A DNA stretch of 63,428 nucleotides, counting the filler. It is 9 parts of 9 records of this genome, joined end to end, with 100 filler letters (N's around TTAATTAATTAA, not from the genome) between each part and the next. Parts side by side here need not be neighbours in the genome. Positions count along the whole stretch, not along the records: positions 40,497 to 48,153 come from DRR378314_2747; 8 more parts are not named here. One strand, given 5' to 3'. The translations under genes were made by a program, and so were the position numbers. The notes beneath the pieces were generated by a model, which was not told the origin of the DNA, ran no database searches, and saw nothing but the letters and a program-made list of their open reading frames with translations. This document shows, piece by piece, positions 9,463 through 55,152 of this stretch (within the stretch, counting starts at the first letter, position 1; each line of letters begins with the position of its first letter).

Positions 9463-9562
9463 NNNNNNNNNNNNNNNNNNNNNNNNNNNNNNNNNNNNNN
9501 NNNNNNTTAATTAATTAANNNNNNNNNNNNNNNNNNNNNNNNNNNNNNNNNNNNNNNNNNNN
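9463..9562. other. Artificial contig linker
   Basis: 44 N + TTAATTAATTAA + 44 N. Confidence 0.99.
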
Positions 9563-14828: not shown

Positions 14829-14928
14829 NNNNNNNNNNNNNNNNNNNNNNNNNNNNNNNNNNNNNNNNNNNNTTAATTAATTAANNNNNNNNNNNNNNNN
14901 NNNNNNNNNNNNNNNNNNNNNNNNNNNN
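14829..14928. other. Artificial contig linker
   Basis: 44 N + TTAATTAATTAA + 44 N. Confidence 0.99.
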
Positions 14929-21503: not shown

Positions 21504-21603
21504 NNNNNNNNNNNNNNNNNNNNNNNNNNNNNNNNNNNNNNNNNNNNTTAATTAATTAANNNNNNNNNNNNNNNNNNNNNNNNNNNNNNNNNNNNNNNNN
21601 NNN
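21504..21603. other. Artificial contig linker
   Basis: 44 N + TTAATTAATTAA + 44 N. Confidence 0.99.
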
Positions 21604-27479: not shown

Positions 27480-27579
27480 NNNNNNNNNNNNNNNNNNNNN
27501 NNNNNNNNNNNNNNNNNNNNNNNTTAATTAATTAANNNNNNNNNNNNNNNNNNNNNNNNNNNNNNNNNNNNNNNNNNNN
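27480..27579. other. Artificial contig linker
   Basis: 44 N + TTAATTAATTAA + 44 N. Confidence 0.99.
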
Positions 27580-33063: not shown

Positions 33064-33163
33064 NNNNNNNNNNNNNNNNNNNNNNNNNNNNNNNNNNNNN
33101 NNNNNNNTTAATTAATTAANNNNNNNNNNNNNNNNNNNNNNNNNNNNNNNNNNNNNNNNNNNN
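33064..33163. other. Artificial contig linker
   Basis: 44 N + TTAATTAATTAA + 44 N. Confidence 0.99.
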
Positions 33164-40396: not shown

Positions 40397-40496
40397 NNNN
40401 NNNNNNNNNNNNNNNNNNNNNNNNNNNNNNNNNNNNNNNNTTAATTAATTAANNNNNNNNNNNNNNNNNNNNNNNNNNNNNNNNNNNNNNNNNNNN
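40397..40496. other. Artificial contig linker
   Basis: 44 N + TTAATTAATTAA + 44 N. Confidence 0.99.
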
Positions 40497-40717: not shown

Positions 40718-40865
40718 CACCCTTATACTGCTAGACGCTTCATCGTTGACGGTGTGGCATAGGGAATACATCACAATCGGGTTATCTCTCCCCGGTGATT
40801 GACCAAATAGGCTATCATTTCGAAACTAGCGTAATGATTTCTTTGGTCATTTGAGGGAAACCACT

Positions 40866-41420
40866 ATGTTCACACGCCGCATATTTCTGGCCGGCACTGC
40901 TGCCAGCCTGCTGCCGGGCGTCGCCAGCGCTAAGAAAGCGGTCGAGTATGATCCCACGCCGCAATTCGTACGGGTCAAAAAGCAATTCCAACCGGGTCAA
41001 TTGCTGGTCGTCCCCCGCTCATTCTATCTCTATTATATCACAGAACCCCGCAAAGCTGTTCGCTACGGGTGCGGGGTCGGTAAAGCAGGGCTGGAGTTTA
41101 CTGGCACGGCTACGGTCGACGTCAAGAAGGAATGGCCAACTTGGCGACCAACCGATGAGATGATCGAGCGCGATCCAGTCGCTTATGGCCGGTTCAAGGA
41201 TAACGATTATGTCCAACCCGGCGGGAGCGATAACCCATTGGGCGCGCGCGCGTTGTATTTGTTCCAGAACGGGGTCGACACCTATTTCCGAATCCATGGC
41301 ACAACACAGCCACAGACCATTGGTCGTGCGGCCTCAAACGGTTGTATCCGGATGCTGAATGAGCATGTGATTGATCTTTACAATAGGGTGCCAATCGGAA
41401 CGGTAGTGACAGTTGTCTAA
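40866..41420 (+). CDS. L,D-transpeptidase (YkuD family) with Tat signal
   Basis: TRRIFL signal, NPLGARALYL, RIHGT...ASNGCIRM. Confidence 0.93.
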   Translation: MFTRRIFLAGTAASLLPGVASAKKAVEYDPTPQFVRVKKQFQPGQLLVVPRSFYLYYITEPRKAVRYGCGVGKAGLEFTGTATVDVKKEWPTWRPTDEMIERDPVAYGRFKDNDYVQPGGSDNPLGARALYLFQNGVDTYFRIHGTTQPQTIGRAASNGCIRMLNEHVIDLYNRVPIGTVVTVV

Positions 41421-42031
41421 GCCGCCGACCAATCCACATCATCTGCTTCTTCAATCCTGAGCCGACCTTCGGGCCAAGGGCGCGTCAGGCCCTGTGCCTC
41501 ATCCTCGGGCCCATGCAACCAGCATTGCACATCCTTCGCCTCCAGCAGCACGCCCATGCGATGATGGATCGGCTCTACATCGGCATTTGGCTCGCAGGTC
41601 ACAGCCGCAACCTGATCCACGCGTTGCCCGCCCGGAGCTTCCCAGGTGTCCGTGATCGCAGCAAATAACAGCGGTGCGCCATCCTTGGCGGCGATCCGCC
41701 ATGCCGTTTTGCGCCGTTTCTCTCCGGTCCATTCGTACCAGCCATCAACCGGAATGATTGCGCGCCCGACCCCTTCGAATGCACTTTTGTCAAACACCGT
41801 TTCCGAGCGGGCGTTGATGATGGTCTCCATCACCGGACGTCCGCGCGCATTGACCCTGCCAACCGGGATCATCCCCCATCGCATCGTCGTCAACCCCTCA
41901 CCGTTCAGTACGATCACTTCCTGACCCGGTTGAATGTTTCTGCGCGATGGTTGAGGCCCAAGGCTGTCTTCGACATTCAGGAACTGAGCGATCTCGCCAA
42001 CTGGACGTGTAAGAAAAAACCGGCCCGGCAT
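41417..42031 (-). CDS. SRAP/YedK/HMCES-family protein with N-terminal Pro instead of Cys
   Basis: MPGRF (canonical MCGRF), NIQP, MRWG..P, INARSET, GWYEW, PIHHRM. Confidence 0.9.
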   Translation of the reverse strand: MPGRFFLTRPVGEIAQFLNVEDSLGPQPSRRNIQPGQEVIVLNGEGLTTMRWGMIPVGRVNARGRPVMETIINARSETVFDKSAFEGVGRAIIPVDGWYEWTGEKRRKTAWRIAAKDGAPLLFAAITDTWEAPGGQRVDQVAAVTCEPNADVEPIHHRMGVLLEAKDVQCWLHGPEDEAQGLTRPWPEGRLRIEEADDVDWSAA

Positions 42032-42040
42032 AGCGTCCTC

Positions 42041-42700
42041 CTAATCGGCAACCCGTTCAGCAAGCGCCACAACAGAAGGCCCCAAATGGGCAACGATCAT
42101 CGCAACGCCTTGGGCATTCGGATGGATGCCATCAGATTGCATGAACTGGCGCGCGGCGTCTGGATCACCTTCGGCTGTGAGCCCGTCAAAGAAGCTTTCC
42201 GCATAAAGCGCATCGTGTTGCTGGGCCAGTTCCGGATACATGGCATCGAAACGCTGCTTGTAATCAGCTCCGTAATTACCGGGCGCCTGCATTCCGATTA
42301 TGAGCACCTCGACACCTGCGGTTTCTGCGGCAACCAGTATTGCCTCAAGGTTGGAGCGGGACACACTCGGGTCGATCCCGCGCAACATATCATTGCCCCC
42401 AAGGGCCACAATCATGCCGTCAACCTCAGGTGTCAGTGTCCAATCAACGCGGGCCGCGCCCCCTGCGGTCGTATCTCCGGACACGCCCGCGTTGATCAGT
42501 TGGATATCCACCCCATCATCCTGCAGCCAGCGCTGCAATTGCGGCACAAACCCATCCTGCTCTGGTAACCCGTATCCTTGGGTCAGAGAGTCTCCGAGCG
42601 CAGCAATCACAACAGGCTGGGCCATCGCTGCAAATCCGCAACAGATGAACACACCTGACATCAAAACCTTGCGCAGTTTCTGTTTCACGCCATATCCCAA
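42041..42700 (-). CDS. tesA: GDSL arylesterase/thioesterase (TesA-like)
   Basis: GDSLTQGYG, NAGVSGDTT, GGND, DGIHP. Confidence 0.92.
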   Translation of the reverse strand: MGYGVKQKLRKVLMSGVFICCGFAAMAQPVVIAALGDSLTQGYGLPEQDGFVPQLQRWLQDDGVDIQLINAGVSGDTTAGGAARVDWTLTPEVDGMIVALGGNDMLRGIDPSVSRSNLEAILVAAETAGVEVLIIGMQAPGNYGADYKQRFDAMYPELAQQHDALYAESFFDGLTAEGDPDAARQFMQSDGIHPNAQGVAMIVAHLGPSVVALAERVAD

Positions 42701-42730
42701 TGGACCGTTCCCCTTTTAATGGCCTGATTG

Positions 42731-43426
42731 ATGACGATACCCGTTCTCACCCTCCAAGATGCCGCATTATCGCTGGATGGCAATGCCGGAAGGGTTGATA
42801 TCCTGCACGACATCTCTCTGACCGTGAACCAGGGTGAAACTTTGGGGCTGGTCGGTCCGTCCGGTTCGGGGAAATCCTCACTGCTGATGCTGATGGGCGG
42901 GTTGGAACAGGCCACCGGTGGCCGCGTTACAGCATTGGGCCATGATCTGACGGAAATGGGCGAGGATGCGCTAGCGAGATTCCGACGAGACGCCATGGGT
43001 GTGGTGTTTCAGAACTTCCACCTGATCCCGACGATGACCGCACTTGAGAACGTGGCCACCCCACTGGAACTTGCGGGGCACAAAGATGCTTTCAAGCGTG
43101 CCGAGGCCGAGCTAGAGGCGGTGGGACTGTCTCACCGAAGTGATCACTACCCGGCGCAGTTGTCAGGTGGCGAGCAGCAACGCGTGGCACTGGCGCGCGC
43201 TTCGGCCCCGCGCCCACAGATTTTGCTGGCTGACGAACCCACAGGCAATCTGGATGAAGCCAACGGATCGGCGATCATTGATCTGTTGTTCGGCCTGCGC
43301 GACAGACACGGTGCCACTCTGGTTCTGGTCACACACAGCCATACGCTGGCGCAGAAATGCGACCGTGTTGTCCGCTTGCGGGATGGCCGTATCGCTGAGG
43401 AGTCTCAGCGCGAGGCCGCCGAATGA
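42731..43426 (+). CDS. ABC transporter ATP-binding protein (YbbA-like)
   Basis: GPSGSGKS, LSGGEQQR, ADEPTGNLD; divergent from tesA. Confidence 0.93.
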   Translation: MTIPVLTLQDAALSLDGNAGRVDILHDISLTVNQGETLGLVGPSGSGKSSLLMLMGGLEQATGGRVTALGHDLTEMGEDALARFRRDAMGVVFQNFHLIPTMTALENVATPLELAGHKDAFKRAEAELEAVGLSHRSDHYPAQLSGGEQQRVALARASAPRPQILLADEPTGNLDEANGSAIIDLLFGLRDRHGATLVLVTHSHTLAQKCDRVVRLRDGRIAEESQREAAE

Positions 43427-45951
43427 GCCTGCATCTGGCCGGACGCCTGGCACGGCGCGAGCTGCGTGGTGGGTTACGCGGGTTTCGGGTATTTCTGGCC
43501 TGTCTGGCCTTGGGCGTTGCAGCGATTGCCGCGGTCGGCATGGTTCGCCAGGCAATCCAGACCGGCTTGCAGCAAGAGGGTGCATCGCTTCTGGGCGGGG
43601 ATGCGCAGTTGGAATTCACTTATCGCTTCGCCAACGATCAGGAGCGCGCGTGGATGGAAGGAACCGCGCAGGCAGTTTCCGAAGTTGTCGACTTCCGGTC
43701 CATGGCCGTTACGGGCAACGATACGAGCGCGCAACGCGCGCTGACCCAGGTTAAGGCTGTGGATGACGCTTACCCGCTGTTAGGTTCTGCGATCCTGAAA
43801 CCTGCGCTTTCTCTGACCGATGCATTTGCAGGCGCCGATGGGCTACCCGGCGCGGTTATGGCCCCCTCTCTGATTGACCGTTTGAACCTTACCGTTGGGG
43901 ATCAGTTTGACCTTGGCACTCAGAGATTTGTTCTTATGGCCGCGTTATCGCATGAACCTGATGGTGCGGCAGATGGGTTCTCGCTGGGACCGCGCACATT
44001 GGTTCGCACAGAAGATCTGCAGTCCTCGGGCCTGTTGGCTCCGGGCACTCTATTTTCCACCAAATACAGGTTGGATCTGCCTCAGACCGCCGAGCTGGAT
44101 GCACTGTCGTCCGAGGCGAGGCAGGCTTTTGAGGGAACCGGTATGCGCTGGACCGATGCCCGCAATGGTGCGCCGGGAATTTCTGAATTCGTGGGCCGCC
44201 TCAGCGCGTTTCTGGTGCTGGTTGGCCTATCCGGCTTGGCAGTGGGCGGGATCGGTGTGTCTGCTGCCGTACGCGCCTATCTTTCCCAGAAAACAGAGAC
44301 AATTGCGACACTGCGGACTTTGGGCGCGGATCGGGCCACGATCTTTCAGACCTATATGATCCAGATTGCCGTTCTGTCTGGCATCGGCATTATCATGGGG
44401 CTGATCCTGGGTGGGATATTGCCGCTGCTGCTGGCCCCGGTAATCGAAACCCAATTGCCAATCCCCGCAGTATTCTCGCTGTATCCGCAGCCATTGTTCG
44501 AGGCCGCACTTTATGGGGTGCTGACGGCGTTCCTGTTCACACTATGGCCTCTGGCCAGAACCGAAGAGGTGCGCGCGGCAACCTTGTTCCGGGATGCGCT
44601 GTCCTCAGCGCGCAGTTTACCGCGCCTGAACTATGTCGTTGCAACAGCCGTGGGTCTTGCGGTGCTGATCGGATCCGCCGCATGGTTCAGCGGTTCTACC
44701 CGGTTGACGTTATGGACCAGCACTGGATTGGCAGGGGCGCTTGCGCTGCTGGCACTTTCTGCATTCGCCGTACGCAAACTCGCCCAGGCAGGCACCCCTT
44801 GGGTGCGCGGGCATCCAGCCCTGCGATGGGCCTTGTCCGCCATATCTGACCCGCGCGAGGGCGCGGCTTCGGTGGTTCTGTCCCTTGGGCTCGGTCTTTC
44901 GGTTCTTGCAGCGGTAGGGCAGATCGACGGCACCCTACGCAATGCAATTTCGGGGAACTTGCCGGAAGTGGCACCCTCGTATTTCTTCGTGGATATCCAG
45001 AAGGACCAGATGCCGGGGTTCAGCGAGCGTCTTGATAACGACCCAGCCGTCACCCGGGTCGAAAGTGCGCCGATGCTGCGCGGGATCATTACCAAGATCA
45101 ACGGGCAGCCTGCGCGCGATGTTGCAGGCGATCACTGGGTTCTGGAGGGTGACCGCGGAGTGACCTATTCCGCCCAACCGCCGCAAAATGCACGCGTCAT
45201 AGACGGAAATTGGTGGCCTGACGATTATGCAGGCACTCCTCAGGTCAGTTTTGCCGCCGAAGAGGCTGCTGAAATGGGTCTGCAATTGGGTGATGAACTG
45301 ACGGTTAATATCCTTGGCCGCGACATTACGGCTGAACTGACCTCACTGCGCGAGGTTGATTTTTCCACCGCTGGAATGGGATTTGTCATGTCGATAAACC
45401 CATCTGCACTGGCGGGTGCCCCCCATAGCTTCATCGCGACCGTCTACGCGGAAGAGCAGGCAGAGGCCGCCATCCTGCGCGATCTTGCTGGGCAATATCC
45501 CAACATCACCGCTGTCCGCGTCCGCGATGCCATCGACCGGGTCTCTGGTTTGTTGGCAGGCTTGGCAGCCGCCACCTCATATGGCGCGGGCGTGTCCTTG
45601 CTGACCGGGTTTCTGGTTCTAATCGGTGCTGCAGCCGCAGGAGAGCCCGCGCGCAGATACGAGGCAGCAATCCTCAAAACTCTGGGCGCGAACCGAGGCC
45701 GAATTCTACGTAGCTTTGCCTTGCGTGCGGTCCTGTTGGGGGCTGCCGCCGGATGTGTCGCCCTGTTGACCGGCATTGTGGGCGGTTGGGCGGTTGCCAC
45801 TTATATCTTCGACACAGAGTTCACGATCATCTGGCCATCCGCGTTAGGGATCGTTTTCGCAGGCATTGTCGTAACGCTGGGGGCGGGGATGCTCTTTGCC
45901 CTGCGCCCGCTCTCGGTACGCCCAGCCCGCATCCTGCGCGCAAGTGATTGA
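43423..45951 (+). CDS. FtsX-like ABC permease (YbbP-like)
   Basis: Two MacB/FtsX halves (IATLRTLGA; AILKTLGA), LLGGD, YFFVDIQ. Confidence 0.9.
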   Translation: MSLHLAGRLARRELRGGLRGFRVFLACLALGVAAIAAVGMVRQAIQTGLQQEGASLLGGDAQLEFTYRFANDQERAWMEGTAQAVSEVVDFRSMAVTGNDTSAQRALTQVKAVDDAYPLLGSAILKPALSLTDAFAGADGLPGAVMAPSLIDRLNLTVGDQFDLGTQRFVLMAALSHEPDGAADGFSLGPRTLVRTEDLQSSGLLAPGTLFSTKYRLDLPQTAELDALSSEARQAFEGTGMRWTDARNGAPGISEFVGRLSAFLVLVGLSGLAVGGIGVSAAVRAYLSQKTETIATLRTLGADRATIFQTYMIQIAVLSGIGIIMGLILGGILPLLLAPVIETQLPIPAVFSLYPQPLFEAALYGVLTAFLFTLWPLARTEEVRAATLFRDALSSARSLPRLNYVVATAVGLAVLIGSAAWFSGSTRLTLWTSTGLAGALALLALSAFAVRKLAQAGTPWVRGHPALRWALSAISDPREGAASVVLSLGLGLSVLAAVGQIDGTLRNAISGNLPEVAPSYFFVDIQKDQMPGFSERLDNDPAVTRVESAPMLRGIITKINGQPARDVAGDHWVLEGDRGVTYSAQPPQNARVIDGNWWPDDYAGTPQVSFAAEEAAEMGLQLGDELTVNILGRDITAELTSLREVDFSTAGMGFVMSINPSALAGAPHSFIATVYAEEQAEAAILRDLAGQYPNITAVRVRDAIDRVSGLLAGLAAATSYGAGVSLLTGFLVLIGAAAAGEPARRYEAAILKTLGANRGRILRSFALRAVLLGAAAGCVALLTGIVGGWAVATYIFDTEFTIIWPSALGIVFAGIVVTLGAGMLFALRPLSVRPARILRASD

Positions 45952-48153: not shown

Positions 48154-48253
48154 NNNNNNNNNNNNNNNNNNNNNNNNNNNNNNNNNNNNNNNNNNNNTTA
48201 ATTAATTAANNNNNNNNNNNNNNNNNNNNNNNNNNNNNNNNNNNNNNNNNNNN
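48154..48253. other. Artificial contig linker
   Basis: 44 N + TTAATTAATTAA + 44 N. Confidence 0.99.
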
Positions 48254-55052: not shown

Positions 55053-55152
55053 NNNNNNNNNNNNNNNNNNNNNNNNNNNNNNNNNNNNNNNNNNNNTTAA
55101 TTAATTAANNNNNNNNNNNNNNNNNNNNNNNNNNNNNNNNNNNNNNNNNNNN
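55053..55152. other. Artificial contig linker
   Basis: 44 N + TTAATTAATTAA + 44 N. Confidence 0.99.

Follow-up and report, generated by a model that had tools for sequence, protein, structure and literature searches.

The defining cysteine of the SRAP family has been described as 'absolutely conserved' and as always being the second amino acid of the protein (PMC3765255). In YedK, the alpha-amine of Cys2 attacks the ring-opened abasic sugar and forms a Schiff base, after which the thiol closes a thiazolidine; the resulting cross-link is itself reversible (PMC9436759). The mechanistic work on SRAP proteins (YedK, HMCES) all concerns this Cys-made thiazolidine cross-link. Here, a SRAP gene with a proline codon in the second position was analyzed, which is located on the minus strand at positions 41417-42031 of a 63,428 nucleotide stretch of DNA from a marine Ruegeria bacterium (the window, which denotes this whole stretch). 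Judging from the sequences of its relatives, the proline is fixed in its clade, which is under purifying selection. The encoded protein (Pro2 SRAP) probably cuts abasic sites or binds them only briefly rather than shielding them, as far as its sequence and the analogy to characterized proteins indicate.

The published data used for comparison were taken from passages of the cited articles. In the YedK variants C2A and C2S, the N-terminal amine yields a Schiff base that borohydride traps (structure 8D2M), and strand cleavage through beta-elimination follows (PMC9436759). The lyase activity of C2A is slow (0.05 vs. 1.7 for Schiff-base formation; the units are not given in the passage), and YedK was also described to react with 3′-phospho-α,β-unsaturated aldehyde (3′-PUA) ends (PMC9436759). 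In Fpg, Nei and Nei2, the N-terminal proline, a secondary amine exposed by removal of the methionine, is the nucleophile (PMC11323726). The mycobacterial Nei2 prefers single-stranded DNA (ssDNA), combines glycosylase and lyase activity and acts as a beta-lyase on apurinic/apyrimidinic (AP) sites within ssDNA, and the reciprocal exchange P2C renders it inactive as a lyase (PMC11323726).

The Pro2 SRAP shares with YedK and HMCES the homology over the whole domain, the SRAP fold, the Asn/Glu/His residues, the Arg/Thr/Arg anchor and the equivalents of Arg4, Pro40 and Trp106. It differs from them in having Pro2 and no Cys2, in the altered 147 and 164 pocket sites, in an Arg-rich loop devoid of Trp and in the lack of the VS..VN motif. 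It is not classed here as a cross-linker of the YedK/HMCES type, because it lacks the Cys2 and a part of the pocket and scores below the cut-off of the NCBIfam model NF007413. With the C2A and C2S variants it has in common a SRAP active site without a thiol, in which the N-terminal amine, the Glu and the His are present, and it can be regarded as their natural counterpart. However, these mutants are slow and have a primary amine (Ala or Ser) in an unchanged pocket, whereas the Pro2 SRAP has a naturally fixed secondary amine together with changes in the pocket. The likeness to Fpg, Nei and Nei2 lies in the Pro as the first residue after the (inferred) removal of Met. Since those enzymes have a fold with a helix-two-turn-helix (H2TH) motif and a zinc finger that is unrelated to SRAP, this is a mechanistic analogy and not a membership.

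Identification of the Pro2 SRAP gene and its translation start

The open reading frame (ORF) encodes 204 amino acids (MPGRFFLT...) followed by a TAG stop codon. The coordinates 41417-42031 given in an initial annotation of the window, made from the sequence alone, include this stop codon; as a minor correction, the gene is assigned to the minus strand. Its 5′-end reads TAG GAG GAC GCT ATG CCG GGC CGG TTT on this strand, which confirms the annotated MPGRF start behind a GGAGG motif. The start codon ATG (42029-42031) and the Pro2 codon CCG (42026-42028) occupy positions 42026..42031, and the GGAGG ribosome-binding site (42037-42041, minus strand) is located six bases 5′ of the ATG. It overlaps an in-frame TAG (42041-42043) four codons 5′ of the ATG, which is also the stop codon of the upstream GDSL-esterase gene. 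Therefore, a translation start further upstream is impossible. The next Met after Met1 is M50 and the first Cys is C146, and thus no alternative start exposes a Cys, a possibility that had been named in the initial annotation as an objection to its own proposal.

The change from TGY to CCN requires at least two base changes (codon positions 1 and 2), and together with the Pro found in all of 80 orthologues (see below) this excludes a sequencing error, which had already been considered improbable. The assumption that a sequencing error or a wrong start masks a normal Cys2 protein consequently has a negligible probability. Nothing was found in its favor, and it is refuted by the start context with the in-frame TAG, by the ORF without a Cys before residue 146 and by the presence of Pro2 in independent assemblies of 80 species, with 60 of the 80 loci lacking an alternative upstream start.

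A Pfam profile search assigned the protein to PF02586 (SRAP) with an E-value of 2.2e-41 and 142.2 bits (cut-off 27.1). The match begins at residue 1 and aligns residues 1-194 to profile positions 1-205 of 214. PF02586 was the sole domain detected in this search, with no Fpg/Nei catalytic domain, H2TH motif or zinc finger. A sequence search against the Protein Data Bank (PDB) matched BT_1218 (2f20), YedK and HMCES with E-values of 5e-12 to 5e-9. An AlphaFold2 model, calculated from 57 aligned homologues, reached a mean per-residue confidence (pLDDT) of 92.8 and a predicted template modeling score (pTM) of 0.90. Comparison of this model to the PDB using Foldseek resulted in 21 matches with an E-value of 0.001 or lower, and the matches listed were SRAP entries (2f20, YedK, 1zn6, HMCES, 2bdv, 2aeg). 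The fold similarity to the SRAP structures 2f20, 6kbz, 8d2m, 6nua and 5ko9 (TM score, normalized to the query) ranges between 0.69 and 0.83. By homology and by fold, the Pro2 SRAP is a member of the SRAP superfamily. Its score against the YedK-type model NF007413 (PRK09951) was 52.4 bits, which is below the cut-off of 349. The architecture is that of a stand-alone, single-domain protein. One longer relative was found (466 amino acids, 66% identity over 56% of the query), which is probably an over-long gene call and not a fusion.

Conservation of Pro2 and selection

For the orthologue set, one genome per species was scanned and the best 80 of 168 related stretches were used, which come from 80 Rhodobacterales species and show 59-96% identity. 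The genera include Ruegeria, Tropicibacter, Falsiruegeria, Shimia, Cognatishimia, Sulfitobacter, Marivita, Litoreibacter, Yoonia, Pseudooctadecabacter and others. The second codon encodes Pro in 80 of 80 loci (CCG 48, CCC 26, CCA 4, CCT 2), following a start codon that is ATG in 73, GTG in six and TTG in one of them. An in-frame stop codon is located at most three codons upstream in 44 of the 80 loci, and no alternative in-frame upstream start is present in 60. On the protein level, the best 120 of 1588 matches (protein clusters with 67-96% identity) were compared, and 119 of them have Pro at position 2. In the remaining cluster the gene call is extended upstream and LPGRFF is found inside.

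All residue counts given below refer to an alignment of 81 orthologues. In this alignment at least 79 of the 81 sequences are identical at 63 of 204 positions, P2, G3 and R4 included. The ratio of nonsynonymous to synonymous substitution rates (dN/dS; Nei-Gojobori) of the window gene was 0.067-0.105 compared to the orthologues L002-L006 and L015, and 0.229 compared to L001, for which dS is only 0.086. The sequences thus bear out the proposal that the MPGR proteins form a conserved clade that evolves under purifying selection, with Pro2 as its fixed character.

Two fragments of the protein library (P0129, 158 amino acids; P0134, 134 amino acids), which are about 67% identical to the query, begin with MHGRFFQT. 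The His2 codon of these fragments differs from a Pro codon by a single base, and the fragments are either real variants or errors.

Retained active site residues

The functional residues of YedK (PMC6821365) were transferred by alignment to the YedK chains and then counted in the 81 orthologues. Three residues that the initial annotation had listed as retained could be assigned in this way: Asn73 in INARSET (codon 41813..41815, minus strand) corresponds to YedK Asn75, Glu100 in GWYEW (41732..41734, minus strand) to YedK Glu105, whose role is described in PMC9436759, and His156 in IHHRM (41564..41566, minus strand) to YedK His160. Each of them was found in 81 of 81 sequences. In YedK, these three residues serve in opening the sugar of the abasic site and in Schiff-base formation. 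The phosphate-anchor residues Arg77, Thr149 and Arg162 correspond to R75 (80/81), T145 (81/81) and R158 (81/81). Arg4 and the equivalents of Pro40 (P35), Thr80 (T78), Trp103 (W98), Trp106 (W101) and Lys113 (K108) are present in all 81 sequences.

In YedK, the exchanges R77A, T149A and R162A abolish ssDNA binding, whereas the ssDNA binding of E105A and H160A equals or exceeds that of the wild type, with Kd values of 0.12 and 1.4 compared to 2.2 µM (PMC6821365). That the Glu and the His are dispensable for binding in YedK and yet invariant here argues for a retained chemistry rather than mere binding.

The conservation also bears on the idea that the loss of the Cys inactivated the protein, which would then be kept for DNA binding or for a structural role, or be decaying. 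The missing nucleophile, which defines the family, the in-frame stop codon in one orthologue (G053, described below) and the absence of a repair context are consistent with such a relic. Nevertheless, Pro2 is invariant while its synonymous codons turn over, Glu100 and His156 are found in 81 of 81 sequences, the dN/dS to close relatives is about 0.07-0.1, and the gene is kept across many genera. A dead relic or pseudo-enzyme is accordingly considered very unlikely.

An invariant Cys146 was considered as an alternative nucleophile and rejected. It aligns to YedK Ala150, which lies beside Thr149 on a strand, and some Cys2 homologues have this Cys too; we regard it as structural.

Changes in the pocket and in the DNA-binding loop

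In addition to residue 2, which is Pro in place of the Cys2 of the YedK/HMCES cross-linkers, the hydrophobic pocket around the thiazolidine is changed. In YedK it is formed by Trp103, Ile147, Thr149 and Pro164 (PMC6821365). Two of these four residues differ in the orthologues: the Ile147 site is occupied by Thr in 39 and Ala in 35 of the 81 sequences, and the Pro164 site by Gly in 74, Ala in seven and Pro in none. The remaining two, W98 and T145, are kept. The Gly160 codon at the YedK Pro164 position, which forms a wall of the thiazolidine pocket, is located at 41552..41554 (minus strand; orthologue alignment). Cys2 homologues, in comparison, have Ile, Val or Leu at the 147 site, and 30 of 31 have Pro at the 164 site (alignment A1). 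Ahead of the GWYEW strand, Arg-Ala mostly takes the place of the Arg-Cys motif (A in 65 of 81), and the C-terminal VS..VN motif of the canonical homologues is missing in the Pro2 SRAP (alignment A1).

The Trp67 and Trp68 of Loop45, which wedges into the ssDNA 5′ of the lesion, were described as essential for ssDNA binding by YedK (PMC6821365). In the Pro2 SRAP this Trp-bearing loop is replaced by the clade-specific Arg-rich loop GRVNARGRPVMET (residues 58-70; 41822..41860, minus strand; alignment A1), which is three residues longer. R59, N61, R63, G64, R65, P66, V67 and T70 were each found in 81 of 81 sequences. The confidence of the AlphaFold2 model is lower over this loop (block pLDDT 74-82).

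The invariant loop could point to another substrate, that is, other aldehydic or damaged DNA (3′-PUA ends, 5′-deoxyribose phosphate (5′-dRP), oxidized abasic sites or base excision by a glycosylase/lyase), or DNA other than plain ssDNA. The reaction of YedK with 3′-PUA ends (PMC9436759) and the combined glycosylase and lyase activity of Nei2, with its N-terminal Pro, on ssDNA (PMC11323726) would be in line with this. On the other hand, a second Pro2 clade from Planctomycetes (see below) keeps the canonical Trp-containing loop, and thus the change of the loop is not tied to Pro2. Furthermore, a base-recognition pocket could not be identified in the Pro2 SRAP. A different substrate is therefore rated as rather unlikely.

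Distribution and Cys2 paralogues

For the analysis of paralogy, a sample of 201 genomes was drawn evenly from the order of the closest relative. Some SRAP match was found in 184 of these genomes. A Pro2 orthologue is present in 48 of them, about a quarter (E-value of 1.4e-51 or lower, 53-96% identity; counted from the table). The next best score is 1e-30, and this clean gap makes the orthologues separable from other SRAP genes. A second SRAP match is present in 45 of the 48 orthologue-bearing genomes. Eighteen of the second copies were translated and all have Cys2 (17 with MCGR and one, with a non-ATG start, with LCGR). In five further genomes, 5/5 have extra SRAP genes above the Pfam cut-off, which start with MCGRFAV, MCGKFAAGH or MCNLYSN. 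Altogether, extra SRAP copies were read in 23 genomes, and each of these has a Cys2 SRAP, which answers in the affirmative whether such genomes keep a Cys paralogue. The window itself contains no second SRAP gene. Because the Cys2 copy is retained beside the Pro2 copy, the Pro2 gene is an addition and not a replacement.

In a careful maximum-likelihood tree, the branch that unites the Rhodobacterales Pro2 clade with the type of Cys2 paralogue present in the same genomes (P0190, P0146, L081) has a support of 96/98. This grouping with the co-resident paralogue type suggests that the Pro2 gene was born by a duplication within the lineage.

Two of the Cys2 proteins themselves deviate from the canonical sequence. 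The Ruegeria Cys2 paralogue (L087-L090, G001-G004) starts with MCGKFAAGH, has INSKIEN and carries Lys at the two positions, equivalent to Arg4 and Arg77, where Arg is otherwise invariant. In the trees, P0137 (213 amino acids) is the Cys2 protein closest to the Rhodobacterales Pro2 clade; it sits on a long branch, and its active site is non-canonical, the conserved Asn being replaced by His (HARAET) and the catalytic Glu by Asp (GWHDW).

A second Pro2 clade and the origin of the trait

A library of 1.84 billion proteins was searched with an E-value threshold of 0.001. Among the best 150 of 12132 matches (representatives), residue 2 is Cys in 98, Pro in 24 and His in two (the fragments mentioned above), and the N-terminus is unaligned in 26. 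Several of the Pro2 representatives fall outside the Rhodobacterales Pro2 clade. When P0250, one of these, was used as the query, eight clusters with 67-100% identity were obtained, which all have the start MPGRL(I/V)QDP and HHRMG at the pocket site; two of the eight are named as Planctomycetes metagenome-assembled genomes. P0285, a fragment that is truncated at the N-terminus and has HDRMG, is a ninth member. The other 111 proteins among the matches listed for this search have Cys2 in 99 cases, and 97 of those 99 have H-x-R-M-P. The nearest Cys2 relative of the Planctomycetes clade, P0286 (MCGRYVQDP..., HDRMP), has clade-specific insertions and deletions in common with the Pro2 proteins. The singletons P0217, P0172 and P0175 show the same pairing.

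In a set of 70 sequences, Cys2 occurs together with Pro at the 164 site in 49 and with another residue in one, whereas Pro2 occurs with a residue other than Pro in 16 and with Pro in four. All of the 16 non-Pro residues among the 20 Pro2 sequences are Gly. A test for independent pairs found one pair on the supported branches and four on all branches, which is too few for statistical power.

In a quick tree with the pocket columns kept, the tree with a single Pro2 clade was better by 12.76 log-likelihood units (lnL; p-value of the approximately unbiased test, p-AU, 0.689), and one clade was thus not rejected. In the careful tree, for which the trait and pocket columns were dropped, the supported branches force at least two changes, and a single change suffices in none of 200 bootstrap trees, the bootstrap being not fully settled. 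Here, the constraint to one clade was worse by 31.5 lnL (p-AU 0.066). From these sequence data independent origins of Pro2 are favored, although they are not formally established.

Proposed reaction and alternative functions

The initial annotation had proposed a switch from the protection of AP sites to cleavage or other chemistry. The first part of this proposal stands: without a thiol at residue 2 the thiazolidine cannot close, so that, going by the sequence, a stable thiazolidine cross-link is chemically excluded, which implies that the chemistry has changed. The reaction that would take its place was deduced from the sequence and from the proteins compared above. The Pro2 SRAP may be a functional, vertically inherited SRAP paralogue acting as an AP lyase, with cleavage as the most likely outcome, and we consider the chances of this reading to be about even.

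In such a reaction, Met1 would be removed to leave Pro2 as the free N-terminus, as deduced from the specificity of methionine aminopeptidase and from the Nei2 structure (PMC11323726). An abasic site in ssDNA would be bound via the retained anchor to the phosphates of the lesion (Arg75, Thr145, Arg158). The opened sugar ring would then be attacked at its C1′ by the secondary amine of the Pro, and Glu100 and His156 would have the roles that their counterparts have in YedK. With smaller residues at positions 147 and 164 (Ile147 to Ala/Thr, Pro164 to Gly), the pocket could accommodate the pyrrolidine ring, whose nitrogen would carry both C-delta and C1′. An iminium ion would form, with no thiol to capture it, and the adduct would be resolved by beta-elimination, which cuts the strand (AP lyase), or would hydrolyze back.

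The second of these two outcomes is the basis for a less probable reading, in which the protein is a reversible shield or sensor. It would bind abasic sites through no more than a transient iminium or carbinolamine, or without any covalent bond, and the site would be protected or marked uncut and passed to other repair proteins. The retained lesion anchor and catalytic residues are compatible with this, and the pyrrolidine ring is presumed to be roughly of the size of the thiazolidine that fills the product pocket of YedK. The reversibility of the YedK cross-link and the slow cleavage by C2A (PMC9436759) point in the same direction, and the coexisting Cys2 paralogue fits a division of labor. 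However, the iminium of a secondary amine cannot deprotonate to a neutral imine, and in chemistry of the Fpg/Nei type beta-elimination would be favored. Since the sequence also has no feature that suggests a suppressed elimination, a shield or sensor is considered possible, but the weaker candidate next to the lyase.

Several points weigh against the lyase. Every chemical step is inferred from sequence and analogy, and in view of the slow C2A variant of YedK, cleavage may be a side reaction and not the selected function. Cutting abasic sites in ssDNA at replication forks should be dangerous. As the Trp residues of Loop45 are lost, either DNA must be bound differently 5′ of the lesion, or a substrate other than plain ssDNA may be involved. 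The neighboring genes, a GDSL esterase and an ABC transporter in 66 of the 80 loci and a heterogeneous set in the others, provide no link to repair. Over the 143 pairs of orthologues with a dS between 0.05 and 1, the dN/dS has a median of 0.316 and a maximum of 0.517, which is higher than for the closest pairs, though below 1; the higher values are probably due to synonymous distances being compressed in GC-rich genes. In the orthologue L112 (G053:C5:222492-223270) an in-frame TAG replaces the invariant Trp of MRWG. No other of the 48 orthologues of the 201 genomes has such a stop codon, and L112 may be a pseudogene or contain an assembly error. The association of Pro2 with Gly160 is strong as a raw count, from which the phylogeny was not separated out, and the deep-branching relatives of the Rhodobacterales clade P0123, P0126, P0130 and P0160 have Pro2 with the pocket Pro kept, so that by these sequences Pro2 seems to have preceded the pocket change in this lineage.

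As a tentative generalization, to which we give somewhat less weight than to the lyase function of the Rhodobacterales protein, the Pro2/Gly160 SRAPs could be natural abasic-site lyases (or glycosylase/lyases) for ssDNA, which would have arisen more than once from Cys2 cross-linkers (Rhodobacterales, Planctomycetes) by Cys2 to Pro and pocket Pro to Gly changes. They would then be convergent with the N-terminal proline chemistry of Fpg and Nei, and cells with both paralogues could choose between shielding and cutting of an abasic site in ssDNA.

In the literature on SRAP, HMCES and YedK no description of a Pro2 SRAP was found, while the supplementary alignments of PMC3765255 and PMC6821365 might contain members. 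A conserved, selected Pro2 clade with a matching change of the pocket would suggest that the SRAP fold supports a second chemistry in nature. The proteins of the clade are named 'Abasic site processing protein' or 'SOS response-associated peptidase YedK' in the databases, and such names imply a cross-linking function that is impossible for the Pro2 clade.

Genomic neighborhood and regulation

The gene upstream of the SRAP gene encodes a GDSL/SGNH esterase (42041..42700, minus strand; PF13472, E-value 3.1e-24). The distance between this gene and the start of the SRAP gene is 9 nt, which suggests that both are co-transcribed. In 66 of the 80 loci the esterase gene directly precedes the SRAP gene on the same strand and has a divergent ABC transporter beside it, which looks like a gene order inherited in the family. 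For seven of the 14 loci without a GDSL neighbor the flanking genes (10 ORFs) were analyzed, and none with a link to repair was found among them. They encode RidA-like (two loci), ParA-like, MatE, FAD oxidoreductase, racemase, FGGY kinase and Omp85 proteins, and two have no Pfam match. The two genes of the RidA/L-PSP family (enamine/imine deaminases) are located directly upstream on the same strand (L053:5584-5997 and L070:5605-5997), maybe by chance.

On the other side, a convergent gene for a YkuD L,D-transpeptidase (40851-41420, plus strand) adjoins the SRAP gene; the stop codons of both genes overlap by 4 nt (41417-41420).

The alphaproteobacterial LexA box has the sequence GTTC-N7-GTTC. 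It was not found near the SRAP gene, and the two occurrences in the window (15107 and 30262) compare to 1.73 expected. Since there is neither a LexA-type box nor a neighborhood of repair genes, the label 'SOS response-associated' is not supported by the sequence at this locus. The genes around it offer no hint at the function either. A sigma-70-like promoter was not detected between 40700 and 43500, and terminator-like sites occur there at chance level.

Two further observations concern the window. In the region 42041-45951, the GDSL esterase, which has an apparent signal peptide, is divergent from genes for an ABC ATPase and a large permease, with 27 nt between the starts. This arrangement resembles that of tesA and ybbA-ybbP in E. 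coli. In addition, the window contains eight pairs of 44-base N runs (9463-9562, 14829-14928, 21504-21603, 27480-27579, 33064-33163, 40397-40496, 48154-48253 and 55053-55152), which are about 5-8 kb apart, lie outside the SRAP gene and look like masked stretches rather than assembly gaps.

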